Assembly (NCBI RefSeq): GCF_035084215.1
Contig: NC_090363.1
Coordinates: forward strand, 3,224,001 to 3,288,000
Source of the DNA: Heptranchias perlo
Lineage: Eukaryota
Reading direction: 5' to 3'
Length of the DNA: 64,000 nucleotides
Below, piece after piece: positions 19,228 through 53,961 of this stretch; positions within the stretch are counted from its first letter, which is position 1; the number at the start of each line of letters is the position of its first letter. The position numbers and the translations under genes were made by a program. Under the pieces are notes generated by a model. It searched no databases. It saw only the letters and a list, made by a program, of their open reading frames with translations, and was not told the DNA's origin.

Positions 19228-19458
19228 GCACTAGCTACCTATCGTGGAGCGCCCTCCACTGGTCCTCAGCCCTGTGTAGGGACAGTGCACTCTGTTGTAA
19301 AAGTGTGTAATTTTTCATTTTCCACACCAGCTATGTTTGTTGTGTCCCTGAATGGCAGACCAGCAGATTAGGAACTGCATTGATCATCGCCCAAATTGAG
19401 CCATGATAGCCAATAGAGAGAGAGAACTTACATTCAGTTAACCTGGACTGGAGTTGAA

Positions 19459-21787: not shown

Positions 21788-21842
21788 TCACTTTGGGTTT
21801 TACGATGAGAATGAGACAGTGGTGGATATGAGAGAGCAGCTG
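21788..21842 (+). CDS. PPT2: PPT2 coding exon (SHFGFYDENETVVDMREQL)
   Basis: ttttacag| ... |gtaagt, phase 2-0; matches PPT2 FGFYDANETVLEMEEQL. Confidence 0.95.
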
Positions 21843-22039
21843 GTAAGTTGTCAGGCACCCACAGGAATGAGTTGCAGAGTCTGCAGCTCGAGGGGAGGAG
21901 GGGGGTGGGTGGGAACGGTGAAAGGGAAGCTCCAGGACCCCCCTATCGGTACCCGGCCTGCACAGTGGTCCGTCCTCCAGGGATCGACCTGCCTTTCTTC
22001 CACCACATTCTGGTCCACGGGAGACGACTCCACTTTGCC

Positions 22040-22410
22040 AGGTTTTCCAGACTTCCCTCCCCCTCTGCTATTCTGCTTTAACCATTTACACCTCCCCTGG
22101 ACCCATCTCTTGTTTCTTTACTTGTCCCATTCCCACCGTCCTTGCCTTGCACCATCATCCCTTTTGTCATTTAACCACTCCTGCCCACCACCCTATCACA
22201 GACCTTCCCTTTTGTTGTTCCCACCCTTTCCTTGGCTCTGTATTTGGTTAAAATATGTTCATCGCTAACATCTTCCAGTTCTGATGAAAGGTAATCGATC
22301 TGAAACGTTAATTCTGTTCCTCCTTCCACATATTCTGCCTGACCTGTGTGTTTCCAGTCTTTTCTGTTTTTATTTCAGATTTCCAGCATCCGCGGTGTTT
22401 TGCTTTTGAT
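22040..22410 (+). mobile_element. Second Penelope-type terminal repeat family with a hammerhead motif at 22277-22313
   Basis: agtt-CTGATGA-a-aggt(aatcg)atct-GAAA-cg-TT-aatt followed by the tail ttttatttcagatttccagcatc; reverse-strand relatives at about 34090 and 54280-54385. Confidence 0.6.
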
Positions 22411-22806
22411 TTAAGAACCATAAGAAATAGGAGCAGGAGTCGGCCGTACAGCCCCCCGAGCCTGCTCCGCCATTCAATCAGATCGTGGCTGATCTTCGAC
22501 CTCAAATCCACTTTCCCGCCCGATCCCCATATCCCTTGATTCCCCGAGAGTCCAAAAATCAATCGATCCCAGCCTTGAATATATTCAACGACTCAGCATC
22601 CACAGCCCTCTGGGGTGGGGAATTCCCTATGGGGTAGTTGTCCAGAGCTTTTGATCCCTTTTTATTAGAAGGGGGGTGTTGTGGCCTCAATGTCACTCTT
22701 TTGTATGTGTTGGGAGGATGAAAAGAGCCTCATCCTTGAATTATTGGGGCGATTGGTGGATTGTTAGAATGTGCGAATGAAAGTAAAATTGGACAGTGCA
22801 ATACCA

Positions 22807-25800
22807 CCGCCACCTGGCCGAGAATGGTATTGCAGGAATAGAAATTCGGATTTTTTTTTTTAAATAGTGCAGCAGCACCACCTATTGGCTTGTGGTGATA
22901 TTGCAGCAACATTTTCCCCTGTTCTATTCCTAACCAGCAGGTCGGTCGCACTATTATATTGTGTAAATACGTATAGTTTACTTGGTGCAACAGCGCCACT
23001 TGCCAGTGAAACAGAAAACATAAAACCACAAGGAGTCTACGGAATTATTTTTTTAATCTAGTAGTTACTATGAATTTGTATTCATCATTTAGTAGGGAAC
23101 ATCGAAGCAGGAGTGCGCCATTCAGCCCCTCGAGCCTGTTCTGCCATTCAATTAGATCAACTCAACTGAATTTACTGTCTTATTCGATGTCAGATCCTCA
23201 GTCACAATGTTTCTGACACTAGGTCTTCAGGGTTGCTGTGGTATTAATATTTATTGGGTAATTATTAAGGTAGGTGAACAAAACAGTATTTACTGTTAAA
23301 AATCCTATTTTCCATGGAGCAACACCACCACCTGCTGGCTGATATCGGGACTTCACAAATTTATTTTTTCCTGTGATACCAATTTTGGTCACCTGGTGGT
23401 GGTATTGCACTCAGGTTTTTCGAAGTCAACATTTTTGCCGATAACTGGACTATTCTGGGGGCTGGTGGTGTGGCCGTTCACGAACTTTCAATAACTAGTA
23501 CAGAGTGGATTAGTGGAGTGCTGTTTGTGGCTGCGAATGGCGGAGTTACATTATTCAGAAACGGACTTTCACTGCGTCCCAAAGGCACTTGGGGGCGTAT
23601 TACAAATATTGGTCATAAACAAGTTACAGCGCCATCTGTTGGATGAGATCGGAATGGAACCAAGCTGCTTTCCGCAGTACCGTTCCCCACCAGCTGGTGG
23701 TGGTGTTGCATCGTGTATAAAGATAAACATTTTTTTAAAACGATGCAACAGCGCCATCTGTTGGATAAGATCGACATCGAACGAATACATTTTCCACAGT
23801 ACCGTTGTCCACCAGCTGGTGGTGGTGTTGTATGGTGTACAAATCAATATACAAAAAATCAATGTAACAGCGCTATTGTCAGAGCTGTAACAGCACTGCC
23901 TGTTGGATGAAAGTTTCATTGCACAAATATATTTTCTGCTGTATCACTCTCTGCTGACATGTGGTGTTGTAAATTTAAAAAATAAAATTCTCCAGATGCT
24001 GGAAATATAAAACAAAAACACAACGCAGGAGAATCTCAGCAGGTCAGACGGTAGCCGTCAAGAGAACATAAGTTGATCTTGTTTTGGATGTTGCATGTGG
24101 GCATCTGTTGGATGAGATTGCCATATTTAAGGAATAGGGAAATGGCAGAGACGTTAAACAAATATTTTGTATCTGTCTTCACAGTAGAAGACACAAAAAA
24201 CATACCAGAAATAGTGGGGAACCCAGGGGCTAATGAGAGTGACGAGCTTAATGTAATTAATGTCAGTAAAGAAAAAGTGCTGGAGAAATAAATGGGACCA
24301 AAAGCCGATAAATCCCCTGGACTTGATGGCCTACGTCCTAGGGTTCTAAAAGAGGTGTCTGCAGAGATCGTGGATGCATTGGTTGTGATCTTCCAAAATT
24401 CCCTAGATTTGAGAACAGTCCCAGCAGAATGGAAGGTAGCAAATGTAACACCGCTATTCAAGAAAGGAGGGAGAGAGAAAACAGGGAACTACAGGCCAGT
24501 TAGCCTGACATCAGTTGTTGGGAAAATGCTGGAATCCATTATTAAGGAAGTGGTAACAGGGCACTGTCATAATATGATCAGGCAGAGTCAACATTGTTTT
24601 ATGAAAGGGAAATTGTGTTTGATAAATTTATCAGAGTTTTTTGAGGATGTAGCTAGCAGGGTAGATAAAGGGGAATCAGTGGATGTCGTATATTTGGATT
24701 TTCAAAAGGCATTCGATAAGATGCCACACGGACGGAAAACCGAGACTAGGGATAAATGGGTCATTTTCAGGTTGGCAGGCTATAACTAGTGGAGTACCTC
24801 AAGGATCAGTGCTTGGGCCTCAGCTATTTACAATTTATATTAATGTCTTGGATGAAGGGACCGAGTGTAATGTATCCAAGTTTGCTGACGATACAAATCT
24901 AGGTGGGAAAGTAAGCTGTGAGGAGGACACGGAGTCTGCAAAGGGCTAGAGACAGGTTAAGTGAGTTGGGCAGGAAGGTGGCTGATGGAGTATAATGCGG
25001 AGAAATGTGAGGTTATTCACTTTGGTAGGAAGAACAGAAAAACAGAATATTTTTTAAATGGTGAGAAACTATTAAATACTATTGGCGTTCAGAGAGATTT
25101 GGGTGTCCTCGTACAAGAAACACAAAAAGTTAGCATGCAAGTACAACAAGGCATTAGGAAGGCAAATGGCATGTTGGCCTTTATTGCAATGGGGTTGGAG
25201 TACAAGAGTAAGGAAGTCTTAGAACAATTGTACAGGGCTTTGGTGAGACCTCACCTGGAGTACTGTGTACAGTTTTGGTCTCCTTATCTAAGGAAGGATA
25301 TGCTCGCCTTAGAGGCGGTGCAATGAAGGTTCACTAGATTGATTCCTGGGATGAGAAGGTTGTCTTATGAGGAGAGATTGAGTAGAATGGGCCTATACTC
25401 TCTGGAGTTTAGAAGAATGAGAGTTGATCTCATTGAAACATATAAGATTCTGAGGGGGTTTGACAGGGTAGATGCTGAGATGTTGTTTCCCCTGGCTGGA
25501 GAGTCTAGAACTAGGGGGCATAGACTCAGGATAAGGGGGTAGGCCTTTTAAGACTGAGATGAGGAGAAATTTCTATACTCAGAGGATTGTGAATCTTTGG
25601 AATTCTCTACCCCAGAGGGCTGTGAATGCTGAGTCGTTGAGTGAATTCAAGGCTGAGATCGATAGATTTTTGGACTCGAGGAGAATCAAGGGATATGGGG
25701 ATCGGGCGGGAAAGTGAAGTTGAGGTCGAAGATCAGCCATGATCTTATTGAATGCCAGAGCAGGCTCGAGGGGCCTTATGGCCGACTCCTGCTCCTATTT

Positions 25801-25961
25801 CTTATGTTCTTATTTCTCCGCAGTACAGTTCTCCGCCAGCTGGTGGCGGTGTTGTACCGTGTAAAATTCGATAACAAAAGTAACAGCGCCATCTGTTGGA
25901 TGAGATCGGCATTGAAAGAATATATTTCTCCGCAGTACCGTTCTCTGCCAGCTGGTGGCGG
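22807..25961. promoter_or_regulatory. Array of about 14 CTCF-like motifs in alternating orientation within the last PPT2 intron (interrupted by a CR1)
   Basis: Cores CCAACAGATGGCGCTG (-: 23627, 23749, 25884), CCAGCTGGTGG(C/T)GG (+: 23690, 23812, 25836, 25948), CCAGCAGGTGGTGG (-: 23325), CCAATAGGTGGTGC (-: 22875); several are preceded by a (T/C)GCAGTACC-like upstream motif 8 nt away. Confidence 0.65.
24128..25810 (+). mobile_element. 5'-truncated CR1 LINE (RT), degenerate
   Basis: [45 protein letters not shown]1 3' tail. Confidence 0.93.
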
Positions 25962-26757
25962 TGTTGTACCGTGTAACAATCAATATATAAAAAAGGAACA
26001 GCAGGTGGTTCTAACGGACTGATTATTTTTCAACTGCGATTAAAAAGTTGAAATAGAAACAGAGATTATTGGAAATATACGAGGGGGAGTGGGACTGTCC
26101 GGAGATGACAGTCTTTATGTTAAAGTTTGGACTGGTCTTTTAAAAGAATCCAACAGGATATCCTGCTGTGGAAGAATTATGGAAACACAAAATTGTGGGG
26201 AATAGAAGGAAACTTGTTGACATTTCCCTTTTTTTGAAGGGCACTGAAGATTTTGGTTGGGACCCACTCATTTAGAAATTGTAACTCTTCCTGAGGCCTA
26301 GTCCCTTGGTGGGCACGTGCTTGGGCTGTTGCATTGTATAATGGGATGTCCTTGTATTCCCCTGTAAGTGTTTGTCCCTCTGTCCGTGTTCTGAGGGAAA
26401 ATTGCTCAAGACCTGAGTGCACGTGCCAGAAAATCTTTTTCTGATGAGCTCAAATGTTTAATTTTCCTTTCTTTTTTGTCCCCTCCACTCCTGAAGGGGC
26501 CGAGGGCGGTGCTGGGGCGGGGGGCCGAGGGCTGTGCTGGGGCGGGGGGCCGAGGGCTGTGCTGGGGCGGGGGGCCATGGGCTACAGGTGCCACCAATAT
26601 TTGGCCCAAGCAACCAGACTGACTGTGTGTCACAATGGGCGGGGAGAATCACAGTCCAGCCTGGGTTTGACAGTTTTAATTCGGAGCCACGAGTAATGTT
26701 GTGTTTAAGTGACAACCTCGAAATGTAATTTAAACTATGCTTTCTATTCCCATCCAG

Positions 26758-26901
26758 GTTTACCTCAAGGATGCGTTCGGCCTGAAAAGTCTGGACGCGA
26801 GGGGAGCCATTACCACCTTTGTGGTCAACAATGTGCATCACACCCAGTGGCACTCCAACCAGACGGTGTTTGACAACTGCATCATCAAGTGGCTCACGTA
26901 A
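26758..26901 (+). CDS. PPT2: PPT2 terminal coding exon with catalytic His ([47 protein letters not shown])
   Basis: cccatccag| acceptor, phase 0, TAA at 26899-26901; matches the PPT2 C-terminus (VYLRDSFGLKTL...HTAWHSNRTLYETCIEPWLS). Confidence 0.95.
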
Positions 26902-28409: not shown

Positions 28410-28494
28410 CAGAAATCTGAGGAGGCCCAATTCTCTCCATTGAAGGGGGACAAAGAGGCTGGGAACGGTTCGGATTAAAATGAGCTGCTTTTCC

Positions 28495-28589
28495 TTGTAG
28501 TGCCGCGTTCTCCCAGCAGGGGGTGGTATTGCACCGCATTAACCGCGCGGTGCGACACTGCCACCCACTGGCCGAGAGCGGTGCTGCGG
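28495..28589. promoter_or_regulatory. Convergent pair of CTCF-like sites with upstream motifs
   Basis: + TTGTAGTGCC-n8-CCAGCAGGGGGTGG; - CCGCAGCACC-n8-CCAGTGGGTGGCAG. Confidence 0.65.
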
Positions 28590-29766: not shown

Positions 29767-29858
29767 CTGCAGTTGCACCAAGATCCTGACAGTGGCGCCA
29801 TTGAGTCTATAGGAATTCTCTGAACAGCGCCATCAACAGGCGTTTGGTGTTACTGCAG
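29767..29858. promoter_or_regulatory. Second convergent pair of CTCF-like sites
   Basis: + CTGCAGTTGC-n8-CCTGACAGTGGCGCC; - CTGCAGTAAC-n8-CCTGTTGATGGCGCTG. Confidence 0.55.
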
Positions 29859-33423: not shown

Positions 33424-33441
33424 GGAAGTGAAAGTGAAAGT
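33424..33441 (+). promoter_or_regulatory. ETS-IRF composite element overlapping an IRF-E/ISRE (GGAAGTGAAAGTGAAAGT), putative butyrophilin promoter
   Basis: Exact GGAAnnGAAA plus GAAAGTGAAAGT; lies about 90 bp upstream of a strong donor (GAG|gtgagt at 33530) in a locally CpG-richer stretch. Confidence 0.7.
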
Positions 33442-33449
33442 TTTCAGGA

Positions 33450-38424: not shown

Positions 38425-38772
38425 GTAAATTCAGAGTTACTGGACCAATTCATCCTGTTGTAGCCGTTGTGGGTGAAGATGTTATATTGGACTGTCAGCT
38501 TGTGCCATCTATACCCGTCAGCAACATGGTGGTGCGATGGCATAAATCAGACCTTGGTTTAGCAGTACACATGTACAGAAATGGAGAAGATGAAACTGTT
38601 GCTCAGGATCAGAATTACAGAGGAAGAACTGAACTGTTTAAAGATGAACTGCCCAAAGGAAATGTTTCTCTTCGGATAAAGAACACAAGAGTATTTGATG
38701 AGGGGAAATACATATGTTCAGTTGATGATGAGACAGATTTTGAAGAAACTGTGATCGAGCTGAAAGTTGGAG
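38425..38772 (+). CDS. Butyrophilin-like gene, IgV exon
   Basis: KFRVTGPIHPVVAVVGEDVILDCQL...VRW...YRGRTELFKDELPKGNVSLRI...DEGKYIC...IELKVG, a typical BTN/MOG/BG-type V domain; acag| and |gttagt, phase 1-1. Confidence 0.93.
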
Positions 38773-38899
38773 GTTAGTGAACACATCTACTTACAAGCTG
38801 ACAACGTGGGGAAAATAACACGTCGTTAAAACTAACTTTTTGGTTAAAATTCAAGTGCTTTTTAAAATAAAAAGAATTCTTCATTCTCTGTTATGAAAT

Positions 38900-40990
38900 G
38901 TACCAGTGCACAAATATGATATGTGGAAAATACTTTCAACAGGGGCAAGATCTCTACTTGCCAAAAAAAACAGCCATGGACAACTTAAGAGGTGAGGGAC
39001 AGTATAAGACATAAGGAAAGGGCATACAAAAAGGCACAAAATGGCACAGATCCTGGCGAATGGGAAAGATACAAAGATCAACAAAGTGTCACAAAACAGA
39101 TAGTAAGAGCTACAAAAAGAGAGTATGAAAAAAAACTTGCAATGGATATTAAAACCAATACGAAGAACTTTTATAGTTATATTAGGAAAAAGAGGGTGGT
39201 CAGGAGCAGTGTTGGCCCCTTAAAAACTGAAAGTGTCATTGACAATGGGGAAATGGCGGACATGTTGAATAATTACTTTGCGTCAGTATTTACAGTAGAA
39301 AAAGAGGATAGCATGCCGGAAATCCCAAGAAAACTAATATTGAATCGGGGACAGGGACTTGATAAAATTAACATAAGTAAAGCAACAGTAATGAAGAAAA
39401 TAATAGCACTAAAGAGTGACAAATCCCCAGGACCAGATGGTTTCCATTCCAGGGTTTTAAAGGAAGTAGGTGAGCAGATTGCAGGTGCCCTAACTATAAT
39501 CTTTCAAAGTTCTCTAGATTCAGGAACTGTCCCTCTAGATTGGAAAATTGCACAAGTCACTCCGCTTTTTAAGAAAGGAGAGAGAGGGAAACTGGGGAAT
39601 TTTAGACCAGTTAGCCTAACATCTGTTGTGGGGAAAATGCTGGAGTCTATAATTAAGGATAGGGTGACTGAACACCTCGAGAATTTTCAGTTAATCAGGG
39701 ACAGCCAGCATGGATTTGTGAAAGGTAGGTCATGCCTGACAAACCTGATTGAATTTTTTGAAGAGGTGACTAAAGTAGTGCACAGGGGAATGTCAATGGA
39801 TGTTATTTATATGGACTTCCAGAAAGCATTTGATAAGGTCCCACATGAGAGGCTGTTAGCTAAGATAGAAGCCCATGGAATCGAGGGAGATGTACGGACT
39901 TGGTTAGGAAATTGGCTGAGCGAAAGGCGACAGAGAGTAGGGATAATGGGAAGGTACTCACATTGGCAGGATGTGACTAGTGGAGTCCTGCAGGGATCTG
40001 TCTTGGAGCCTCAATTATTCACTATTTATTAACGACTTAGATGAAGGCATAGAAAGTCTCATATCTAAGTTTGCCGACGACACAAAGATTGGTGGCATTG
40101 TAAGCAGTGTGGATGGAAACATAAAATTACAAAGGGATATTGATAGATTAGGTGAATGGGCAAAACTGTGGCAGATGGAATTCTATGTAGACAAATGCGA
40201 GGTCATCCACTTTGGATCAAAAAAGGATAGAACAGGGTACTTTCTAAATGGTAAAAAGTTAAAAACAGTGGATATCCAAAGGGACTTAGGGGTTCAGGTA
40301 CATAGATCATTGAAGTGTCATGAACAGGTGCAGAAAATAATCAATAAGGCTAATGGAATGCTGGCCTTTATATCTAGAGGACTGGAGTATAAGGAGGCAG
40401 AAGTTATGCTGCAGCTATACAAAACCCTGGTTAGACCACGCCTGGAGTACTGTGAGCAGTTCTGGGCACTGCACCTTCGGAAGGACATATTGGCCTTGGA
40501 GGGAGTGCAGCGAGGGTTTACTAGAATGATACCCGGACTTCAAGGGTTAAGTTACGAGGAGAGATTACACAAATTGGGGTTGTATTCTCTAGAGTTTCGA
40601 AGGTTAAGGGGTGATCTGATCGAAGCTTATAAAATATTAAGGGGAACGGATAGGGTGGATAGAGAGAAACTATTTCCGCTGGTTGGGGATTCTAGGAGTA
40701 GGGGGCACAGTCTAAAAATTAGAGCCAGACCTTTCAGGAGTGAGATGAGAAAACATTTCTACACACAAAGGGTGGTAGAAGTTTGGAACTCTCTTCTGCA
40801 AACAGCAATTGATACTAGTTCAATTGCTAAATTTAAATCTGAGATAGATAGCTTTTTGGCAACCAAAGGTATTAAGGGATATGAGCCAAAGGCAGGTATA
40901 TGGAGTTAGATCACAGATCAGCCATGATCTTATCAAATGGCGGAGCAGGCACGAGGGGCTGAATGGTCTACTCATGTTCCTATGTTCCTA
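38900..40990 (+). mobile_element. 5'-truncated CR1 LINE ORF2 (one frameshift near 40025)
   Basis: ORFs 38992-40032 and 39980-40909 with full RT motifs and the CR1 tail (gttcctat). Confidence 0.95.
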
Positions 40991-43051
40991 ACACAGGCTG
41001 GTTCAACAAAAGTATTCAAAAAGACAGAAACTAAGGGATGTTCAAATTAAAGACATTTGTTTATAATTGTTTAATTAAGGAGGAATACTAATGACAGTCA
41101 AATTTTAGATTTAAGATATTTCATTAAGTTAAAGTAATTCCATCACACAAGAAGTCATAAGCATCACTATTGGTTTCATCGTAGTGTATGTGGAAAATGA
41201 AGAATTAGAAAGTAAGTTACACTACCTGCTTTCAGTATTGACTTGGAATGTGGTTTATCCTCCACATACCTAATCTTCACATTCTGTTTCTTGTTGCTTC
41301 ACTTGTTTTTAACCTTTTTTTAAAAAAAAGTGTTCCCTTCACTGTGTAAGTCTGGTCCACCCTACAGGCTGACTAATAAAAGAATTAGGGAGTAAAGTTC
41401 TTCTTTTGAGCTTGTTTTAAGGTTCTTTGTATCCAAGATTAAATGAAAAAAGGAATAACTTTATTAAGGTTCAAAACACCTTTGTGTGTTGCTGGTTGGA
41501 AAGGCTCCTCATCAGACATCTGAATGAGTGGTGATTGCACAGTGCTTTTACCCATTCAGCCACTGGTGATGTTGGTGGTATTTAAATATTTGACATGACA
41601 CCGTCAGCCTAAATATCCACGGCAGCAGTAACACCACTGCAGCTTTCAGAGCTCCTCAGTCCTGAAGGAAGTACTTGGTATGTTTCCTGCTAGAAACCCA
41701 TACTGCTCGAGGAGATAATGTTAACTGGATCCTGCAGTGAGTGTACTTGAGTCTCCCGATCACAAATTGCAGTGCGGTGCCTAACTGGTTGGCCCCATTT
41801 TTTAAAGTCAGATATTGGTCATCAAGGAGGTAGTGAAAAGTGTCTTGCTTCATTTTGGCTTTCTTCACAGTGACATGCTCCTTCACCTGTTGAACTTGCA
41901 TACCTTGTGTGGTGGCACAGAGGGAGTGCACTTCTTTACCAGGTGTTCACCTATTTCAATACCATTGATGCTGGCAAATGCGTGCTGCTCGACAGGGATT
42001 TCAACTGCACAATTCCTGCTCTTGGTAAGCATGTATCATTGGTGGAAAGGTTGAAGGACTGGCTAAAGTTTTTCACATTGGTGGTCATCTGATGGTATCA
42101 CCATCCTGACTCCAGCTTCTTCATGTCAATGAGGGCTGGAGCCAGTTGGAGCAGTCAGTTGAGAATCAATGGCTGTTGCATTTCTTGTGTGTTCGCTTCT
42201 TGCACACTGTCTTCTGGGATGCACCCAGTGCCATCCATGGACAACCTCAGCCTCCCTCCCCACCTGTTGTCGATGAAGTTTGCTCTGTTTTGTACCCTGG
42301 TGGAGTTAATGTATTGGCATTTTTACAACTCATCCTTGGAGGTCAGTGCTTCCAGGATTTGTTTTTGTTGGTTCTGGACCAACTGGAAGAGGAAGAAGGG
42401 AGCTTCCCCTTGTGATGGTGGAATGTAGGCAGAGCTCAAATCGACACCTTCTGTCAAGAGTATATGAGGATGGTGACCAAGAAGCAAGATTGAGGGTCAG
42501 ATGGCTATAGAAGGAGTATATGATCTGGAGTCTTGCCTAGCTATTGCCATCAAAGATCCAACCTTGCAGCAGGCCACACTATTGCATGACTAGATATTGG
42601 CAGTAAAGTTAAGCTCCTGATCATAAGGGACAAGGGGTCCAATTAAGGGAAAGACCAGTGTTGCTGAACCTGAGAGAATATCGACAGCCAAACAAATTTG
42701 TAACCAGTGCAGCTGCAAATAGGAACTTTTCAAATTGGAAAGGGCTTCAAAATCAAAGGGCACTATTGGGACTGTTGGTATTTTTGTTTTTATATCTATA
42801 TCTATATTTATGTATTTATCTATGCATATAAAAATAAAATGTGACTTGGATGAAGGCAGCAACAGCAAAACCTTCCAAGTTTGTACATGAAGCCAAAAGA
42901 AGAGGCAGTGCAAATAATGAGAAATGGTGCAACCAGAATCAGAAGGTTTGGGGTATTTTAGTTAAATAGACCATTAGGTGGCAGATACAGTTCAACATAG
43001 ATATTTTATGTATCTATCAGTATGGCAGCAAGGAACCTAAAGAGAAAGTTT

Positions 43052-43811
43052 GGCCCTGAAATTCCTGGGCCTGGGAGGGTGGAACGAGAACACAAAGCGG
43101 GTGGGGGTGTAATTTCACGTGTGACCCATTTCCACCTGGTCTCCCTCTTCTCGCAAAATTGTGACAGGATGGAGGCACAGACATCCCACTGATGGACTGT
43201 AACCAGGGACTAAACTCACTCACAGTGTCAGCTCTCACTCCAGACCCTCCCACAGTAACTCCCACTGATGGACTGTAACCAGGGACTCATCTCACTCACA
43301 GTGTCAGCTCTCACTCCAGACCCTCCCACAGTAACTCCCACTGATGGACTGTAACCAGGGACTAAACTCACTCTCAGTGACATCATTGAAGAGGTGGGTT
43401 TCTGTGGAAATTCTGCCAGTTCCACTTTTCCTGTAGCAGGGGAAAGTATGCCTGCATGAAGCAGGTATGCTTACTCTACCAAAATGGAGTCGGCTTAAAG
43501 CTTTTTCGATTAATTACCATTAGGAAAATGACTGTAGCAAAATGGGTCATTTTAAAAAGGTCTTTGGCCTAATCGCTCTTCCCCCCCCCCCCCCCCACCG
43601 CCCACCCTTCATGAGGGAGTGGCAAGATGTTGCCCAAAATTCCTGTCTCTTCTTCCCCTGGGCGGATGCACGAGGATTGTTGTGAATGGTGGGGTGCCTG
43701 TCTCCTTTATGTAAAGGAGACCTTTCCCTGGATTGGGATGGGGTCAATGCCAGGTCATTCTGCCCCACCATATTTCTGGCAGTGGAGTGAGGCTCCAGGA
43801 ATTTCAGGGCC
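43052..43811. mobile_element. MITE / non-autonomous DNA transposon with 17-bp TIR, containing a 76-bp tandem repeat (43185-43378)
   Basis: GGCCCTGAAATTCCTGG at 43052 and CCAGGAATTTCAGGGCC at 43795-43811; the same left end recurs at 45182. Confidence 0.7.
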
Positions 43812-44783
43812 CATGTGTTTAAATGGAAGTGTTCACCTAGAGTATGTATCTTCAGCATCGAAGCACAAAATCTCTCAAAGGGTAAACAACATTTTCTGCA
43901 TCTTTTCTGAATTTCAAAAATAGCCTGCTGTGTATGCCCAGAGTTTCAGTTTTCAATTCAGATTTCCAGATTTTGCAGTTTTTCTCTTTTTGTAAATTTC
44001 AGAGACTTTGAAATAATTTAATTGAAATATCCAAGATTGTGAAAAGTATTGATAAAATTGGTCCGGGGACACTATTTTAAAAATTAGAAGTTGGGAATAA
44101 AAATGGAAAATTCAAAAGAACTCTTTTTTGAAATAAACTTGAGATATTTTCCCAGGGATGGCCAATGATGTGGGGTCAAGAAACCAAGTTCTTCTAGAGA
44201 AAGAAAAGACAAAAAAAGGACAGGCTTGTTGGGTCTAATGAATTTTTCCTGTTCCTTTTGAAAAGTTTAATGTTCTTTTTCTAATGAATCCACTCTCTTA
44301 TCCATACACCTTTTGAAAGTTATTTTTCCTTTTAATTTTCCTGAATAGGGTCTTCAAGTGCCTTCTGCTGCCAGGTATATTTAAGATTAATTGGTCAGTC
44401 ATACATATTTTTTCTCACCAATCTTTGCCGACAGTCATCTCCCCTCCTCTTTCCCACCCCCCCCCCCCCCCCCGCCTTCCCGAAGGTATTGTTTCCTAGC
44501 CGGGCTACAATTCCATGGGTACCGAATGTCCTCTGGTACCTCATCCATGTGGTCATAACTTAGTCTGAACAACTGGTAACTGATTTATATTAATTATTTA
44601 ATCATCTCTGATTGTTATATGAGGACATATTTTGAGAAGAAATTTAGTTCATATCCTATTAGTCATGTCACAGTAAGATTATGATGATCTATCTCTCAAT
44701 AACATTAAATGAATATTTTCCATGGATTAAAGGAAGCATTCCTAACACATGTTATTTCTAAATATGTTTATTGATCGTTGTAG

Positions 44784-45068
44784 GTTTGGGACGTGAGCAC
44801 TGGATCCAGATAGAGGGATACCGTAAAAATGGAATTCAGCTTGTGTGTGAATCTAATGGATGGTACCCTGAGCCAGGGATACAGTGGACTGGTGGAGATG
44901 GACAGAACTTAACAGCACAGTCTGAAACAAGTTACCATCAGGACTCTAAAGGCCTTGTAACTGTCCAGAGCCACATTGCTGTGACAAAAGATTCATCAAA
45001 CAGGTTCAAGTGTCTCGTACGGAGCAATCTGTTGAAAAAAGAACAAGAAACAACTGTCCAGATATCAG
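44784..45068 (+). CDS. Butyrophilin-like gene, IgC exon
   Basis: GLGREHWIQIEGYRKNGIQLVCESNGWYPEPGIQW...FKCLVRSNLLKKEQETTVQIS, with the BTN C-domain signature C.S.GWYPEP; gtag| and |gtctgt, phase 1-1. Confidence 0.93.
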
Positions 45069-45334
45069 GTCTGTAAATTATAAAATACTGTTAATTAAAG
45101 GGAATAGTTATTGTGGGAACAGTCTTGGTATTAGTTGCACTTGATGATTAATTTACCTCAGTTTATTTGTGTAAATGGTTTGGCCCTGAAATTCCTGGAT
45201 ATTGATCCACTGCTGAAAATGTGGCCGGGTGAAAATTCCTGACGTAGATTATCCCAAATCCCAGGACTGGGATCATTTACATAAAGAGGATGGGTAATTG
45301 TGCCATTTTCAGGGCTTCCTGGGTCCCAGAGGCC

Positions 45335-45760
45335 TGGACTAAAATCCAGAGTTAGGAATTCAAATCCCACCACGGCAGCTGGCGAATTTAAATTCAATTA
45401 ATTTATTAAATCCAATTAATTTATTAAATCCAATTAATTAAATAAAAAATCTGGAATTAAAATACTAGTATCAGTAATTATGGCCATGAAACTACCGGAT
45501 TGTCGTAAAAACCCATCTGGTTCACTAATGTCCTTTAGGGAAGGAAACCTGCCGTCCTTACCCGGTCTGGCCTATATGTGACTCCAGACCCACAGCAATG
45601 TGGTTGATTCTTAATTGCCCTCTGAGATGGCCTAGCAAGCCACTCAGTTGTAAAATCTCGCTAGGCGGCTCACCACCACCTTCTTGAGGGCAATTAGGGA
45701 TGGGCAATAAATGCTGGCCTCGCCAGCGACGCCCACATCCCGTGAACGAATAAACAAAAA
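45335..45760 (+). mobile_element. tRNA-derived SINE with LINE-like 3' tail
   Basis: B-box-like aattcaaatccc at about 45357; tail caccaccaccttct...gggatgggcaataaatgctggcctcgccagcgacgcccacatcccgtgaac matches the 3' end of the LINE at 520-610. Confidence 0.75.
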
Positions 45761-48129
45761 CGGGGCCAGGAATATTTAAGCGGGTGGACTGTTATGGCCA
45801 AAGATAGAAATATTTTTAAAGAACTTTGCCCCAATGGAAGTAATGTTGTTTATTTTCCTGTGAGTCCTTCCCGAGTACCTCGGGCTTCTGGAGATTTAAA
45901 ATCTTAATCTACTGTTACATGTTGGTGCTTAAAGCAGGTTTGGATTATTTGGTCCAGCAACAGATTAAATATTGATCATTCTTCTTTCTTTATTTTTCCC
46001 CACAGGGGCTGTTTACATACACTCTGTACTTTTTAACCGTATTTTTTTTATTTTTAAATTAATTATTCTTTGTTTTATGTACTTTTTTATTTGCAAAATT
46101 CTCCTCCTCAGTGTTCACTTGTGTAGCATTTGTTTCTGTCGGTATGTATCTGAAATTTTTCTTCATTTCTTTCTTGCTCTGTTAAGATGCTGTGTTTTTT
46201 ATTACACTGCAGGGTTAAGTACTGTAGGAGAGATTTTCTACTCCTGGGCATAAGCAGGTGCTGAGCAAGGGAGTGGGTATAAAATCAAGGGCAGAGGCCA
46301 GGCGCTTGAAATGCACTGCGAGCATCTGCCTAGTATTTTTCAACCAGGCAATGCTGTGGGAGTGGGAGGCTGGTGTCACTGGAGTGCACAAGCCTCATTG
46401 GAGCTTTAAAAATGAAGATGGTGTTTCCCTGTCCCACAGCTCCCAGTGGTTTGATCCCCCTACATGACATAATTCCCGTGCATCTCTATAAATAAGCACA
46501 TACACACACCAGGTCACAGCCAAGAGAAGTGACTTCCTAGTTGTCTTAAACCTATTTTCCTCTTGGTTTCAGAATTTTTTTTGTGTGGGTTGCGTTTTGC
46601 CTCTTTGATTTGCTTTTGTTGCATTTATTTCGAAGATTTGGTTTTATTTTTTGCCTTTCACCTTTTTTTCTTTTTACCACCTACCATTCAAGGTAGAATG
46701 AGCATTCCCATTGGAATTCCTCTTGCCTTCTGGGAGCTAGAGGATAAGGAGGAATAACAGAGGAATGAGCTACCTGTATCTGGGGCAGCTTCCACGGTCC
46801 TTCTCTTAGCCAAGAAGGTGGGTCCGCAGGCCCTGCCAGAGCTACTTACTGGGGCATGCCAGAGGACATATGCCTTTCCTTCCTACTCTTGACCAGGTAG
46901 TGTTGCTCCAGGTTCAGATTGTACCCTTGGGGACCCACCTTATACAATCAGAAAAGTAATCTTTAGACGCTGACAGTTGAAGGACCACATGCACAATGAC
47001 AGACGTGAACAGCCTGCATCGGTACGTGACTCCATCAAGCAGCTAGACTGTTTTACAAAAAAAAGAGTTGCTGTGGCCTTGGTAGATGTGAATGTAGCAA
47101 GTTTTTCAATCATACTTTGCATCTTGAAGATGTGTCCTACTGAGGACTGAACATGCGATGAAAAATACTGTAAAGTTGTATGGAAGCTTGGCATGGATTC
47201 CTTTACATGTGCTGCCACCTTGTGTGTCTGTTATCAGGTCCTGCGGGTAGTGTACACAGTGCTGAGCCTGGTTACCACCCACTGTCAGGAGTGGTGCACT
47301 ACTGTGCTCTAGGGAGGGTGCCCTAAAATGCCAAACACCCCCGCCTTATACCCACTTCATATAGCCATTTACCATCTATCAAATAGGGGAACTGTGTGCT
47401 GTATCACTCCAGCATGTGCCCATAGAATCTGTGCCTCCATATCGGATTTCCATTCACTTCGTTTATGCCTGACACTTCTCCCCCACCCCCGGCCAAGGCT
47501 GACAACATCTACTAATTTTGCACTCATGGCCTTTGAGAAATACCCTGCCTGCCTGTGGGATTTAACCCCTTGCATGCTGTTTGTAGTCATAAACTTTCAA
47601 TTGGGATTCTTTAATACAGACCAAAAATATATTCTTGTCACAGGAGGGTACAGGTGATTCTATCATTAGAGGGATAGGTAGCTCTTTCTGCAACCACAAC
47701 CTGGAGTCCAAATAGTCTGGTGACTCCCAGGTACTAGGGTAAGGAGCCCAACAGAGCAGGTGGAGAAGATTCTGGAAAGGTACGGTCAATATCTTGAAGT
47801 CGTGGTTCATGTTGGAGCCAGTAACGTAGGGAAGATCAGTAAGGAGATAATGCAAAGGGAGTTTGAAGAATTAGGTGTCTGATTAAAAAGCAGGGCTTCC
47901 AGGGAGTACTCTTGGGACTACTTCTGATGCCATTTGCTGGGCCAGTCAGGGAGAAACAGATTAGACACATCAACATGTTGCATGACAGGTGGTGTAGAAG
48001 GGAAGGTTGGATGCTCAGTCGTGGAGTATATTCAAGGCTGAGATCGATAGATTTTTGGACTCTCGGGGAATCAAGGGATATGGGGATCAGGTGGGAAAGT
48101 GGAGTTGAGGTCGAAGATCAGTTCTTTCA

Positions 48130-51100
48130 GTTAGTGGTAAACAAGCAGCCTGAGGTGGCAGTTGGTCACCTAGTTAATTAGGTGACTGGTTAGAACTGGT
48201 AATCTACTGTCAGCTGGGGCTGACTCAGGTGATTGGCATTCTAGCTAGCATAAATTCAGAAGGGTTTTGCTAACGCACGGAGTAGCAGCTATCGACAGAG
48301 TCTGGTTTTGACAGAGTCTATAATTAGGAATTTGGTGAGTGAGGGGATTCGGTGCAGTAAGGGGTGAGGTGCATTTGATTAGTCAGCAGAGCGGAGAGGA
48401 GCGTACCGAGAGCGGGTCACAGCAACAACAAAATAAAACTGCAGATTGACATCACAGGTAAGGCAGGTAGGTGGTTGGTGGTGAGTATCTCTTCTGTTTT
48501 CTTCTTTCTTAGGACTGTGGGCTAAGAAACTTATAGCATTAAACTACATTTTTAAAAAAAAACTAAACTTAATTTAGTTATAGCAAGTAGCGTTTTTTAG
48601 TGAATCAAAGTCCCTAGTGTAGTTAACATTCTCTAAATTAAGAGTAATTTAAAGGAGTAAACTCCTTTTAAAGGGAGTAACTAACGAGCTTAATCTAAGG
48701 CAAGTCATGGCAGGAGAGCTCGCATCCATGATATGCTTCTCCTGCGCTATGTGGGAAGTCATGGACACTACCGGTGTCCCTGGTGACCATGTGTGCAGGA
48801 AATGTGTCCAGCTGCAGCTACTGGCTAACCGCATTTCGGAGCTGGAGCTGCGGGTGGATTCATTGTGGAGCATCCGCGATGCTGAGATTATCGTGGATAG
48901 CACGTTCGGTGAGGTGGTCACACCACAAGTAAAGATTACGCAGGCAGAGAGGAAATGGGTGACCGCTAGGCAGGTTGAGCAGGAGTCCCCTGGGGCCATT
49001 TCCCTCTCAAACAGATATTCTGCTTTGGATATTGTCGGGGGAGATGGCTTATCAGGGGAATGCAGCAAGAGCCAAGACCGTGGCACCACGAGTGACTGAG
49101 CTGCATAAGAGGGGAGGAAAAAGAATGGGAGAGCAATAGAGATAGGGGATTCCATCGTAAGGGGAACAGATAGGTGTTTCTGCGGCCGCAGACGTGACTC
49201 CAGGATGGTATGTTGCCTCCCTGGTGCTAGGGTCAAAGATGTCACGGAGCGGCTGCAGGATCTTCTGAAGGGGGAGGGTGAACAGCCAGAGGTCGTGGTC
49301 CATATTGGTACCAACGACATCGGTTAAAAAAAGGGATGAGGTCCTGCAAGCAGAATATAGAGAGTTCGGAAATAAATTAAAAAGCAGGACCTCTCAGGTA
49401 GTAATCTCAGGATTACTCCCAGTGCCACGTGCTAGCGAGAGCAGAAATAGGATAACAGACCAGATGAATGCGTGGCTTGAGAAATGGTGTAGGAGGGAGG
49501 GGTTTAAATTCCTGAGGCACTGGGACCGATTCTGGGAAAGGCGGACGGGTTGCAACCAAGCAGAACCGGGACCAATATCCTCATGGGGGCATTTGCCAGT
49601 TCTGTTGGGGAGGGTTTAAACTAGTATGGCAGGGGGGTGGGAACCAAAGGGCAGGTACAGATAGGACAAATTCAGACCAGGAAACGGGAAGTAGAAAAAC
49701 AGTTAGTGACGTAGTTAGCGACTCAGAAAGGCAAAAGAAGCAAAGGTTAAATAGTGTTCAGCACAGGAATTTGACGGGGTTAAAGAGTATATACTTCAAT
49801 GCAAGGAGTATTCCAAACAAAGCAGATGAGCTAAGGGCACAGATAGACACGTGGCAGCATGATATCATTGCTGTAACGGAAACCTGGCTTAAAGAGGGGG
49901 ATAATTGGCAGCTCAATATCCCTGGATATAGAGTTTTCAGGCAGGAAAGAGTGGGTGATAAAAAAAAAAGGAGGGTGGGGTAGCATTATTGGTTATAGAA
50001 GCAATTACAGTTGTGAGAAGGGATGATATGCTAAATGGATCATCAATCGAGGCCATATGGGTTGAGCTAAGAAATAAAAAAGGGGCAGTCACACTACTAG
50101 GAGTGTACTATAGACCCCCAAATAGCGAAAGGGAGATAGAAGAACAAATATGTAGGCAAATTTCTGAGTGCAAAAATAAGAGGGCAATAACAGCAGGGGA
50201 CTTCAACTACCCTAACATCAACTGGGATTCAAACAGTGTGAGGGGCACAGAGGGCGCAAAATTCGTGATCGGTGTCCAGGAGAGCTTTTTTAGCCAGTAC
50301 GTGACAAGCCCAACAAGAGGGGATGCAATTCTAGATTTAGTCCTGGGAAATGAAGATGGGCAAGTGGGTGAAGTGACAGTGGGTGACCATATTGGGGATA
50401 ATGACCACAATTCAGTTAGTTTTAGCATTATTATGGAAAAGGACAGAGTTAAATCAGGAGTAAACGTTTTAAATTGGGGGAAGGCAAATTTTACAGAACT
50501 AAGAGGTGATTTGGCAGAAGTGGACTGGACACAACTACTTGAGGAGAAATCAGTGGCAAGCCAGTGGGAGGCACTAAAAAGTGAAATTCTACGGGTACAA
50601 TGCAGACATGTCCCCTCAAAGAAAAAGGGTGGCGCTGCCAAATTTAGAGCTCCCTGGTTGTCTAGAAGTATATGGGGCAAGACAAAGCAGAAAAAGAAAG
50701 TTTATGACTGTCACAGAAAACTAAATACTACAGAAAGCCTAGAGGATATAGAAAGTACAGGGATGACGTAAAAAAGGAAATAAGGAAAGCAAAGAGAGGG
50801 CATGAAAAAATATTAGCAAGTAAGATTAAAGAAAACCCAAAGATGTTTTATCAGTACATTAAGAACAAGAGGATAGCTAAGGAAAAGGTGGGATGATAAG
50901 GGTAACTTGTGTGTAGGGTTTTAAATGAATATTTTGTCTCTGTATTCACAAAGGGATGTTCCGGACGTAGTAGTTAAAGAGGAGAGGTGTGAAATATTGG
51001 ATAAGGTAAACATAATGAGAGAGGAAGTACTAGAGGGACTGGAATCCTTGAAAGTTGATAAGTCACCAGGGCCGGATGGATTGTTTCCTAGGCTATTGAA

Positions 51101-52700
51101 GGAAGCCATGGAGGAAATAGCAGATGCTCTGAGGATCATTTTCCAATCCTCACTAGGTACAGAGGAGGTACCGGAGGACTGGAAGACTGCAAACGTAGTA
51201 CCATTGTTTAAAAAGGGTACGAGGGAAAGGCCGAACAATTATAGGCCAGTCAGTCTTACCTCAGTGGTGGGCAAACTATTAGAATCAATACTAAGAGATA
51301 GGATAAACTGTCACTTGGAAAGGCATGGTTTAATCAGGGATAGTCAGCATGGATTTGTTCAGGGAAATGCCTTACAAATCTGATTGAATTCTTTGAGGAA
51401 GTGACAAGGAGGATTGATGAGGGTAGTGCAGTGGATGTTGTCTACATGGATTTTAGTAAGGCATTTGACAAGGTCCCACATGGCAGACTAGTCAGAAAGG
51501 TAAAAGCCCATGGGATACAGGGAAATGTGGCCAATTGGATCCAAAATTGGCTCAGTAACAGGAAACAAAGGGTAAAAGTCGATGGATGCCTTTGCGAATG
51601 GAAATCCGTTTTCAGTGGTGTGCCACAGGGCTTAGTGTTGGGTCCCTTGCTGTTTGTGGTATATATTAATGATTTGGACTTGAATGTAGGGGGTATGATT
51701 GGCAAATTTGCAGACGACACAAAAATTGGCCGTGTAGTTGATAGTGAAGAGGATAGCTGTAGACTCCAAGAAGATATCAATGGGTTGGTGGAGTGGGCGG
51801 AAAAGTGGCAAATGGCGTTCAACCCGGAGAAGTGTGAGGTAATGCAATTAGGGAGGGCAAACAGTAAAAGGGAATACTCAGTAAACGGGAATATATTGAG
51901 AGGGGTAGAGGAAGTGAGAGACCTTGGAGTGCATATGCACAGGTCCCTGAAGGTGGCAGTACGGGTAGATAAGGTTGTGAAGTAGGCATTCGGAATGCTC
52001 TCCGTTATTAGCCGAGGTATAGAATACAAAAGCAGGGATGTAATGATGGAACTGTGTAAAACGCTGGTAAGGCCACAGCTGGAGTATTGTGCGCAGTTCT
52101 GGTCACCACATTACAGGAAGGACGTAATTGCTCTGGAGAGAGTGCAGAGGAGATTTACAAGAATGTTGCCAGGGCTTGAAAATTGCAGCTACGAGGAGAG
52201 ATTGGATAGGCTGGTGTTGTTTTCCTTGGAGTAGAGGAGGCTGAGGGGAGACTTATTTGAAGTGTACAAAATTATGAGGGGCCTAGATAGAGTAGACAGG
52301 AAGTACCTGTTTCCCCTAGCGGAGAGTTCAAGAACTAGAGGACGTAGATTTAAGCTGATTGGCGGAAGGATTAGAGGAGACATGAGGAAAAACCTTTTTA
52401 CCCAGAGGGTGGTGGGTGTATGGAATTCGCTGCCCGAATTGGTGGTAGAGGCAGGGACCCTCAACTCTTTTTTAAAAAAGTACCTGGACTTGCACCTAAA
52501 GTGCTGTAAGCTGCAGGGCTACGGACTGGGTGCTGGAAGGTGGGATTAGAATGGGCACCTGGTTGTTCTTTGAGCCGGCGCAGACACGATGGGCCGAGTG
52601 GCCCCCTTCTGTGCTGTATCTTTTCAGTGGTTCTATCAGCCATAATCTTATTGAATGGCGGAGCAGGCTCGAGGGGCCATACGGCCTATTCCTGCTCCTA
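48130..52700 (+). mobile_element. Near full-length degenerate CR1 LINE (ORF1 + ORF2)
   Basis: CFSC..C.KC finger, GDSIVRG esterase block, FNARSI, ETWL, YRPP, GDFN, MDFSKAFDKVPH, FADD; many stops and frameshifts. 5' boundary approximate. Confidence 0.93.
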
Positions 52701-53841
52701 TGGTTACAGACATCTGGGGCATTGGAATGGTTCTGAACCTGGTGGAAGCTCTCCAGATGTTACGGGCTTCACCTAAACTGAACCAGGGTAAATTAAGCAG
52801 TGTGGGAAGGTTTAAATTGATATAACTGAGGGGAGAAGTAAACCTCGGAGCATATGGGGAAGGATTAAGAATAAATATTATGAAGGAACAAAGCACTTGA
52901 AAAGAGTAAGCTCAAAGGGAATATAGAGAGAAATGTTTCAGGGCATACAGGAGAGATGTTGATGAAAAGGAAAAGGTGAGAAAAAATCGAAAGGAAGAGG
53001 TACTGTGGAACATACAAACAGGGCAAGCAAAGACCATCAGGCCACTCCTGCTTGCCTCATTCAGTAGATGATATAAACCTTACACACTGACCACTCACAC
53101 CTTAGTAATTCTGCCTCCTGGGAGGGATAAAATAACCAAGAAAAAAACCTATACATAGCCAATTTACAAAAAAACGGAGAAATTCCTCTCATTCCCTAAG
53201 GAAATCAAGCAAGCTCCAGCAGAACGATGAATGGTTCAGGGTTCTGCTGCAGAAATCAGGCCCGGACTATTTTAACTCCCAGACCTCATTGATATGCCAC
53301 CAGTTCACCTCTTGCCTGGAAGTGGCTGCCGGCCTGTGAAAAACTGGGCAAACTATGGCTGTCCACCGGCATGCAGGTGGGGTGGGGAGTCTGGGGTAGG
53401 GGAGGCCTAAACTTTTCTTGCGGGGCCCAGAGGACCTCTTCACATCCCTGTCCTCTTCTGACTTGGTTCAGCCTGACGACAAAGCCGCAGCAACTTCCCC
53501 ACTCAGGCTGGAGTTAAGATTACATTCTGGGCCCAATGACGCTATCGGACCCTGATCCGCATTATTTCAAGAAGGACCCCGCCAGCTTTGGGCATTAGGA
53601 TTAGCTGCCCATTGAGAAGTCTGCGCAAAAATCGCGGTTGGTGGGATCCGAGCAGCTCGCGGACAGGTAAGTAACCTGGGCGATTTTAACTGCCTACTCG
53701 CCCGCGCAAACGCTCGTCTTTAACTCGGAGCTATAAATGTTTAACTTTGTTTTGCTAATATTGTGTATTCTAAAAGAATGATTTCCACGGGATATGTTAC
53801 AGGTAATATTATTATCTAATTTACTGGCATTTACTTTGCAG

Positions 53842-53961
53842 ATGATTTCTTCCCGACTGTCTCAGGCTGGCTCGTGTTTCTTTCTGTGATCATTTGTCTT
53901 CTAATCGTAGTTATTTCTACTGGGATCTGTTGGACTGTGAAACAATATAGATACGTTAAAG
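53842..53961 (+). CDS. Butyrophilin-like gene, transmembrane exon (DDFFPTVSGWLVFLSVIICLLIVVISTGICWTVKQYRYVK)
   Basis: ctttgcag| ... |gtacgg, phase 1-1; FFP..S.W start typical of BTN TM exons followed by a ~22-aa hydrophobic helix. Confidence 0.9.

Follow-up and report, generated by a model that had tools for sequence, protein, structure and literature searches.

A dense array of CTCF-type sites facing both ways in the last PPT2 intron, a candidate chromatin boundary beside a butyrophilin-like gene

The window analysed here, a stretch of 64,000 nucleotides, carries the housekeeping gene PPT2 and a butyrophilin/MOG/B7-like gene on the plus strand. The penultimate exon of PPT2 (21788..21842, +) was identified by its translation and AG/GT ends, with neighbouring exons matching PF02089, and the last coding exon including the stop codon (26758..26901, +) matched PPT2 in PDB entry 1pja (E 3.9e-12). 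Between them lies the last PPT2 intron (21843-26757), which hosts an array of CTCF-type sites; its placement there by the original prediction was supported by the agreement of Pfam and PDB matches with spliced RNA contigs. RNA-like contig cover of the PPT2 3' UTR reaches at least 28187. The immune neighbour that had been proposed for PPT2 was found next downstream in the form of butyrophilin-like domains, belonging to a gene (38425..53961, +) recognised by translation and domain matches, with exons for IgV (~38425-38772), IgC (~44784-45068), and a transmembrane segment (~53842-53961), all on the plus strand. The order PPT2 followed by a BTN/MOG-like gene is common to white shark and sawfish MHC class III, and based on this order and on the repeat types, we take the host to be a shark. 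An ISRE-like 15-mer (33426..33440, +), also matched by 19 of 100 shuffles at the tolerance used, lies in a CpG-retaining stretch (CpG O/E 0.89) that is probably the promoter of the butyrophilin-like gene. The intron also harbors a 5'-truncated, broken LINE of the CR1 type (24128..25810, +; RVT_1 E 2e-10 and 5e-8).

The array extends over 22797-25968, equivalent to about 1.5 kb of non-CR1 DNA, and comprises 10 strong CTCF-type cores and ~7 weak or decayed half-units. The CTCF core matrix used for scoring was not taken from a database, and non-overlapping matches of at least 12 bits were regarded as strong. With this matrix, the expected enrichment over shuffled sequence was evident, since 22807-25961 contained 10 such sites, compared with a mean of 0.11 and a maximum of 2 in dinucleotide shuffles (0/500 reached 10). 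As the copies are related by duplication, this means that the cluster is not due to chance, and nothing more. Scores of the 10 sites ranged from 12 to 20 bits (per-site p 1e-5 to 1e-7 with the same matrix), and 6 sites of at least 12 bits were located in the remaining 60.8 kb of the window. The weak or decayed half-units, compiled manually, are 22817-, 22934+, 23006-, 23585+, 23906-, ~23953+, and 24111-. With 10 strong and 17 recognisable sites, the earlier count of about 14 was fair. The family continues past the range first described, at 28495-28589 and 29820-29858, giving 13 strong sites across 22.8-29.9 kb (the array 10 and three at 28.5 and 29.8 kb). Five of the strong array sites are on the plus and five on the minus strand. 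The proposed alternation of orientation is strict from 23585 rightwards, but the left end reads -,-,(+),-,-,+; altogether, the leftmost sites are minus and the rightmost array site is plus, with both orientations throughout. Tandem Repeats Finder at score 30 did not report the array.

From left to right, the array begins with a minus site (22797..22835) combining an upstream motif of 9/9 with a weaker core of 8.5 bits and forming a 38-bp quasi-palindrome (22797-22834), the 9-nt ends of which are exact inverted copies. It is followed by the strong minus site 22888 (22868..22906; 14.0 bits, upstream motif 8/9), by its decayed back-to-back partner (22916..22954, +; PWM score -1.4, nhmmer match 22862-22973 with E 1.6e-6), and by a weak minus half-unit without the upstream motif (22986..23024; 4.2 bits). 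Dimer U0 is formed by two strong sites with upstream motifs of 7/9 each, the left half on the minus (23318..23356; 19.6 bits) and the right half on the plus strand (23371..23409; 12.2 bits). A weak possible half-unit (23567..23605, +; 3.8 bits) had no separate nhmmer match. Next are the intact back-to-back dimers U1 (23622..23710; 23642- with 17.5 bits, 23690+ with 13.3 bits) and U2 (23744..23832; 23764- with 17.8 bits, 23812+ with 13.3 bits), and the decayed, CpG-poor dimer U3 (23886..23973), both cores of which are broken. In U4, the decayed left half (24091..24127, -) is severed by the CR1 from an intact right half (25818..25856, +; 18.1 bits, upstream motif 7/9), and the array ends with the intact back-to-back dimer U5 (25879..25968; 25899- with 17.5 bits, 25948+ with 18.1 bits, upstream motifs 8/9 each). 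Further right, a homologous strong pair is arranged face-to-face (28495..28589; 28513+ with 17.8 bits, 28571- with 19.1 bits, nhmmer E 3-4e-4), and another minus site follows (29820..29858; 11.7 bits, upstream motif 8/9). A tentative partner of this site at 29788+ was not counted, given its score of -23 bits in the register applied.

The repeat unit is a back-to-back dimer, each side of which consists of an upstream motif, 8 nt, a core, and a conserved 7-nt 3' extension. Unit periods were as claimed, namely 122 (23626/23748) and 112 (25814/25926). Minus cores CCAACAGATGGCGC start at 23642, 23764, and 25899, and plus cores CCAGCTGGTGGYGG at 23690, 23812, 25836, and 25948; upstream elements were indeed located exactly 8 nt from the cores at 23371, 23672, 23794, 25818, 25930, and 22897-22906(-). 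Among 10 sites, the upstream motif peaked at a spacer of 8 only (mean 7.2/9; 1.4-4.3 at the other 20 spacers), its window mean being 2.7 (of 9). An alternative register of the plus core, CCACCAGCTGG, was rejected because the upstream motif fits the other register only. Thus composed, the sites match the extended CTCF motif originally suggested, i.e., a core plus an upstream element putatively read by ZF9-11 across an 8-nt spacer. The same upstream-motif geometry occurs in the IL3 and alpha-globin HS-94 insulator sites (PMC12885311, PMC11417384), and ZF8 stays clear of the bases over about 8 bp (PMC10484683). The 3' extension TRTTGCA, absent from the earlier description, is common to all sites and spans core positions 15-21, which equals the ZF3-ZF1 span, and conservation fades directly after it. 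ZF1 was reported to read a GAG triplet (PMC10484683), which the extension mismatches. In 9/14 intact sites, 7-9 of 9 positions of the extension correspond to the reverse-complemented upstream motif. Sites of the plus family carry a T instead of the A of the matrix in about 93% of cases, and 6/14 intact cores show T rather than the usual C at core position 12, a residue that CpG decay would produce. When 12 distinct cores are compared, their variation tracks the CTCF matrix (Spearman -0.68, p 0.007), in a partly circular comparison. Gaps between cores amount to 45-50 bp back-to-back and 30-67 bp face-to-face.

Eight diverged monomers, picked by core score alone, revealed identities of 0.56-0.62 in the upstream motif, 0.69 in the core, and 0.62-0.73 in the 3' extension, compared with 0.33-0.38 in the 8-nt spacer and 0.28-0.37 in the tail, and the upstream motif exceeded the spacer in 12/12 choices of representative (permutation p 0.001-0.012). 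This block-wise pattern matches the footprint expected of the CTCF fingers. Among aligned units including decayed ones, cores departed from the column majority at 21/168 positions versus 85/306 for spacers, linkers, and tails (p 7e-5); against the 8-nt spacer alone, again with decayed copies included, p was 0.054. For the upstream motif of young copies, the corresponding comparisons gave 24/107 versus 85/306 (p 0.17) and, against the 8-nt spacer, p 0.67. The statement that the spacers have drifted is therefore true of distant monomers, but young copies kept the 8-nt spacer as well as the upstream motif; likewise, selective retention of the motifs was found among the eight diverged monomers and for the cores, but not for the upstream motif of young copies. 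Intact units had CpG O/E values of 0.95, 1.19, and 1.12, compared with 0.32 for the decayed unit and 0.39 for both the CR1 and the window, and about 7/17 half-units are weak or dead. The array copies are not independent of each other, and gene conversion could inflate their identity.

The CR1 sits between 24111- and 25836+ in the U4 linker and had thus been correctly described as landing between the halves of one unit. It is 89.7-90.4% identical to its closest sibling pieces within the window; contigs of runs X1 and X4 both span its 5' junction, and no CR1-skipping joint (empty site) was among the 15 joints listed. Summed contig depth, taken from 2 DNA runs with one sample label at a likeness of at least 80%, which misses copies under 80% identity, was 12-22 in array bins, like unique flanks, and 1e5-3e6 for the CR1 and SINEs. 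Hence, the array carries no look-alike contig pile in these two runs at this likeness, as a dispersed repeat would, and at E<0.3, nhmmer placed all unit copies of the window within 22.8-28.6 kb. Run X4 differed from the window once in 23134-23828 and not at all in 23799-24160, too few for a selection test; of the X4 differences, one affects a weak core and another an upstream motif. Searches of contig collections not expected to contain shark DNA gave 0 matches to the full monomer pattern (metagenome and viral contigs) and 497 pattern matches to the PPT2 last exon, 0 of them confirmed (metagenome contigs). RNA-like contig cover was absent from array bins 23279-23917 and 25835-26473, which is no evidence on expression, since contigs show presence only.

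The sequence itself shows the anatomy of the motifs, their duplication history, conservation in the shape of a footprint, retained CpGs, and the gene context, and the density of CTCF-type motifs pointing both ways makes the array a likely candidate for a chromatin boundary beside the butyrophilin-like gene. CTCF binding is judged likely, and boundary function, given binding, would be fairly probable; the complete reading as a CTCF-bound, two-way loop-extrusion barrier is the one we lean towards. Inverted duplication of one extended ~39-bp CTCF site would have produced a back-to-back dimer about 110-122 bp long. Local amplification of this dimer would have followed, with some copies dying and one being split by the CR1, and the survivors may have been retained because CTCF binds with most of its 11 fingers. 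Minus sites would stall cohesin coming from the PPT2 side and plus sites cohesin from the butyrophilin-like side, so that the array and the sites at 28.5 and 29.8 kb could form a redundant barrier between the PPT2 promoter region and that of the immune gene, which would lie about 7.5 kb downstream. Binding of the two-part CTCF motif is documented for lamprey, chicken, and human (PMC5504073). Skate TAD borders display inward-facing CTCF motifs that are divergent at insulation minima (PMC10115646), and insulation is reinforced by upstream motifs (PMC11417384, PMC12885311). Occupancy of all sites at once cannot be taken for granted, since the sites are 30-70 bp apart compared with typically about 5 kb in mammalian boundary clusters (PMC6945661). 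A more far-reaching version, which we regard as very doubtful, would see in the array an ancient, conserved elasmobranch MHC class III border shielding PPT2 from an interferon-responsive butyrophilin cluster, built of a quasi-palindromic cassette that amplifies itself by inverted duplication and fold-back conversion, its back-to-back 11-finger dimers being packed tightly enough to form a nucleosome-free CTCF polymer and its 3' extension being a ZF1-2 or partner-factor element undescribed in mammals.

CTCF might also bind without creating a domain boundary, either in the manner of chained 2xCTS (closely spaced double sites for CTCF or CTCFL dimers) or as roadblocks flanking the last exon of PPT2 that would influence pausing, the selection of 3' ends, or transcriptional read-through to the immune gene. 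Adjacent cores 30-67 bp apart are within the 2xCTS limit of <100 bp (PMC5973138), homologous sites are found on either side of the exon, and CTCFL was proposed to be older than chondrichthyans (PMC5504073). We nevertheless consider both versions together unlikely, though deserving some weight, as all strong sites have the upstream motif, an insulator-type mark (PMC12885311, PMC11417384), and the left end points left and the right end right, as in a boundary. Selection would be dispensable in a neutral palindromic mini-satellite seeded by a CTCF-like sequence or transposon end and homogenised by fold-back conversion, with the motif match simply inherited. The quasi-palindromic monomer with its exact inverted ends, the decayed half-units, and the young copies keeping the upstream motif no better than spacers would fit this origin, as would the tail of 23764-, which equals that of its face-to-face partner at 11/11 positions and those of its own homologues at 6/11, a sign of local conversion. 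Neither descent nor conversion, however, predicts a near-random 8-nt spacer between two conserved blocks, and CpG retention limited to intact units as well as the lack of look-alike contigs at 80% likeness or more and of copies elsewhere in the window at E<0.3 also make this explanation quite unlikely.

Face-to-face pairs on the PPT2 sense strand could alternatively form an array of intronic RNA hairpins, i.e., pre-miRNA-like structures or editing substrates. Folding z-scores on the plus strand were -5.5 for 23670-23785, -6.0 for 28493-28592, -2.6 for 25816-25920, and -3.2 for 29770-29860, the first three folding better on the plus than on the minus strand, and 23694-23760 weakly matched an Rfam miRNA model (26.3 bits, cut-off 92, E 0.068); the Rfam scan of 21800-30500 yielded 3 matches up to E 1, all far below cut-off. 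However, folding is built into any face-to-face pair of one motif, two other such pairs were unfolded (z -0.6 and +0.4), whole-arm G-U bias was mixed (4:6, 5:5, 9:4, 3:1, 9:3), and the partnerless sites 22817, 22888, 23338, and 23389 hold the same motif blocks, so we regard hairpins as highly improbable. The same applies to conservation driven by another or second factor reading the quasi-palindromic monomer (TGCAATACC-like inverted ends) or E-boxes in the cores: it would account for a 3' extension that is the reverse complement of the upstream motif and conserved well above the tails, yet is not the reported ZF1 triplet, but this extension falls within the ZF3-ZF1 span, with conservation fading right beyond, and core variation follows the CTCF matrix, with the partial circularity noted above.

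Among known systems, the DXPas34 minisatellite at Tsix is likewise a short-period repeat with multiple CTCF motifs, but a direct repeat of simple cores, unlike the back-to-back dimer of extended sites. ICCE (NBDY intron) and DXZ4 (PMC6125249) resemble the shark array as tandem repeats, intronic in the case of ICCE, in which each unit has CTCF motifs in both directions, the motifs persist as the remainder drifts, and conservation reaches past the core; their units measure about 5 kb and 3 kb, respectively, compared with 110-122 bp, and they are bound on the inactive X, whereas binding of the shark array is predicted. Clustered-CTCF TAD boundaries, defined by two or more sites within 10 kb (PMC6945661), share with the array both orientations, old, young, and dead members, proximity to a promoter, and outward-facing sites on both sides, the shark locus having 13 strong sites. 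Their sites, however, have a median spacing of about 5 kb, are largely independent gains, and are 70% co-oriented, while those of the array all go back to a single monomer and switch orientation every 50-60 bp. With the IgH 3' CBE super-anchor (PMC10293834), the array has in common a cluster of about ten CTCF sites and its position at an immune locus; the ten IgH 3' CBEs are all convergent with upstream CBEs, whereas the array faces both ways (5 plus, 5 minus), so that the term super-anchor in the original prediction overstates the case; in geometry, the divergent IGCR1 pair comes closer. As with 2xCTS (PMC5973138), adjacent motifs are <100 bp apart, too close for a nucleosome to fit in. Mammals are well known to have both CTCF clusters and tandem repeats bearing CTCF sites, so that the concept is not a novel one; what sets the array apart are the density, the strict alternation (from 23585 rightwards), and the conserved 3' extension. 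If bound, the array would be a first candidate architectural element of the cartilaginous-fish MHC and a compact natural experiment on boundary birth and renewal, as living and dead copies together with a datable LINE would make site number, spacing, and orientation testable in under 1 kb.

The array of CTCF-type sites at 22797–25968 is real and well-formed. Using a CTCF core matrix and a threshold of 12 bits for strong, non-overlapping sites, we identified 10 sites in 22807–25961 and six in the remaining 60.8 kb of the window, while shuffles of the same interval gave a mean of 0.11 sites and none of 500 reached 10, so that with this matrix the predicted enrichment over shuffled sequence was confirmed. 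Seven further half-units of the array were weak or dead. The 122- and 112-bp periods, both core types, and the upstream elements were located as originally described. Two of the six strong sites elsewhere form a face-to-face pair (28513+ and 28571−, named by core start and strand) homologous to the array (nhmmer E 3–4e-4), and an additional site at 29840− scored 11.7 bits. A degenerate full-site pattern, itself derived from these sites, matched with up to three mismatches at nine places, eight in the array and one at 28.5 kb, and nowhere in 100 shuffles. Eight other cores checked in the window had upstream scores of 2–3/9 at spacer 8. A single site at 56384–56414 (+) within the butyrophilin-like gene (12.5 bits) carried an upstream motif of 8/9 at a 7-nt spacer, and a lone core of 16.9 bits without upstream motif was found at 19249–19262 (−) in an earlier PPT2 intron, directly after a 63-bp minisatellite.

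Each monomer consists of the upstream motif, 8 nt, a 14-nt core, and TRTTGCA, in this order. The upstream score averaged 7.2/9 at spacer 8 compared with 1.4–4.3 at the 20 other spacers. The same 8-nt geometry is described for insulator sites of IL3 and alpha-globin HS-94 (PMC12885311, PMC11417384), and zinc finger (ZF) 8 of CTCF is reported to bridge roughly 8 bp at a distance from the bases (PMC10484683). Back-to-back monomers have core gaps of 45, 50, 47, 47, 46, and 48 bp; face-to-face gaps are variable (30 to 67 bp). The proposed alternation of orientation is strict from 23585 rightwards and does not hold for the left end. Read on the opposite strand, the last two core letters together with the 3' extension reproduce the upstream motif (7–9/9 in nine of 14 intact sites), and this inverted match is exact at 22797–22834. 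The TRTTGCA extension spans the positions of ZF3–ZF1, yet differs from the GAG triplet given as the ZF1 contact in PMC10484683; it may be a contact of fingers 1–2, the site of another factor, or a relic of palindromic origin.

Minus copies are mutually identical at 33–36 of 40 positions and plus copies at 34–38, the two families sharing only 21–24/40; the minus sites 22817− and 28571− belong to the plus type but are inverted. This pattern points to an old inverted duplication, followed by tandem amplification and local inversions. As originally described, a CR1 element (24128–25810) lies between the two halves of one dimer, within its short linker; of these halves, the right is intact and the left has decayed. 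The CR1 differs by about 10% from those sibling pieces in the window that resemble it most, so the array is not of recent origin. One face-to-face pair shows symmetry beyond the motif (11/11 with its partner vs. 6/11 with its homologues), which suggests local fold-back conversion.

Regarding a dispersed repeat, contigs from two DNA runs at 80% likeness, which carry one sample label and of which X1 may be the source of the window, revealed no large look-alike family over the array bins. Summed contig depth, which does not equal copy number, was 12–22 in array bins, 9–30 in unique flanks, and 1e5–3e6 over CR1 and SINEs. Contigs covered 23133–24160 without difference, which shows a sound assembly over this part. 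Run X4 differed from the window at 23591, 25935, 26826, and 28822, and RNA-like runs agreed with it at both of these places that they cover; material with this one sample label thus includes a second haplotype. In seven aligned units, the decayed ones included, cores departed from the column majority at 21/168 positions and spacers, linkers, and tails at 85/306 (p 7e-5; core vs. 8-nt spacer alone, p 0.054), all p-values on selection being generous because the copies are related. The upstream motif was no better kept than spacers in these units (24/107 departures, p 0.17). Among eight diverged monomers, picked on core score alone with one per near-identical family, identity was 0.56–0.62 in the upstream motif, 0.33–0.38 in the spacer, 0.69 in the core, 0.62–0.73 in the 3' extension, and 0.28–0.37 in the tail, and upstream exceeded spacer in 12/12 choices of representative (p 0.001–0.012). 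Such a trough between conserved blocks is predicted by a CTCF footprint, not by plain descent.

CTCF-bound sites typically remain unmethylated. The intact units had observed/expected CpG ratios of 0.95, 1.19, and 1.12, compared with 0.32 for the decayed unit (23886–23973) and 0.39 for both the CR1 and the whole window, where 3.8% of 280-nt segments reach at least 0.9. Against selection, the plus family has T at core position 6 instead of the usual A, 6/14 intact cores have T at core position 12, and about 7/17 half-units have decayed. With regard to RNA structure, hairpin folding of face-to-face pairs on the + strand was strong in four of six (z −2.6 to −6.0; the others −0.6 and +0.4), G-U bias along the arms was mixed, an Rfam scan gave no match near cut-off, and sites without a face-to-face partner retain these motif blocks too. 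Within these limits the three tests of selection agree, and the array is probably selected; the presumed selective retention of motifs applies to cores and, among diverged monomers, to upstream elements, but not to the latter in the seven aligned units.

The assignment to the last PPT2 intron (21843–26757, +, from translation and splice ends) proved correct: four of five exon translations tested matched PF02089, the last exon matched human PPT2 (PDB 1pja, E 3.9e-12), and two RNA-like contigs (1553 and 1453 nt; the RNA nature of their runs is a guess) match only from 26757 on, as spliced mRNA would. RNA-like contigs of runs X5 (from 28592) and X7 (from 28568) extend beyond 29000 from a start at the right-hand arm of the hairpin pair at 28.5 kb; they represent a separate transcript or else a long 3' UTR of PPT2. 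Inside or just beyond the PPT2 3' UTR, a SINE-like element whose long inverted arms match perfectly (28165–28410; also about 36307–36510 and 1565–1778) could form double-stranded RNA; its match to a plant-miRNA model of Rfam (34.8 bits, cut-off 80) is spurious. Large minisatellites of 7–73 copies fill the PPT2 introns, namely 3626–6325 (37 bp), 16060–18550 (50 bp), 18760–19228 (63 bp), 19458–20234 (45 bp), and 20442–21361 (38 bp), and are almost absent from the butyrophilin-like side, the shift lying near the array.

A butyrophilin/MOG/B7-like gene with V-set and BTN-type IgC domains follows downstream of PPT2 in the same orientation. An ISRE-like 15-mer at 33426, within a stretch that retains CpG, only suggests inducibility of this gene, since the pattern also matched in 19/100 shuffles at the tolerance used. 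Behind this exact ISRE-like element lies what is probably a first exon, non-coding, with its splice donor (33426–33535 in all); the leader exon is probably 35282–35371, and a CpG-rich stretch directly ahead of the transmembrane exon (53500–53720) is probably a repeat. In white shark and sawfish, PMC10751288 places ppt2b with class III genes on the chromosome that carries the MHC, followed by one other gene model and a MOG-like or BTN1A1-like gene in the same orientation; in sawfish, an uncharacterised model on the opposite strand lies between ppt2b and the BTN gene.

CTCF most likely binds the intact sites, and the array would stall cohesin from both sides, forming a predicted redundant barrier that separates the promoter region of PPT2 from the promoter of the butyrophilin-like gene. 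The two-part CTCF motif is bound in species ranging from lamprey to human (PMC5504073), inward-facing motifs occur at skate TAD borders (PMC10115646), and a model predicts that more strong sites give more insulation (PMC11828424). Neither this element nor a CTCF array in a shark MHC was described in the literature searched, largely open-access text. The array, a candidate known here from sequence, would work in the manner of a clustered-CTCF boundary (PMC6945661). It is similar to the ICCE repeat, likewise intronic, but with a unit of about one-fortieth the length (PMC6125249), and has a site spacing similar to 2xCTS (PMC5973138). The "super-anchor" of the original prediction does not fit, as the sites of the IgH 3' super-anchor are co-oriented (PMC10293834), whereas those of the array are not.
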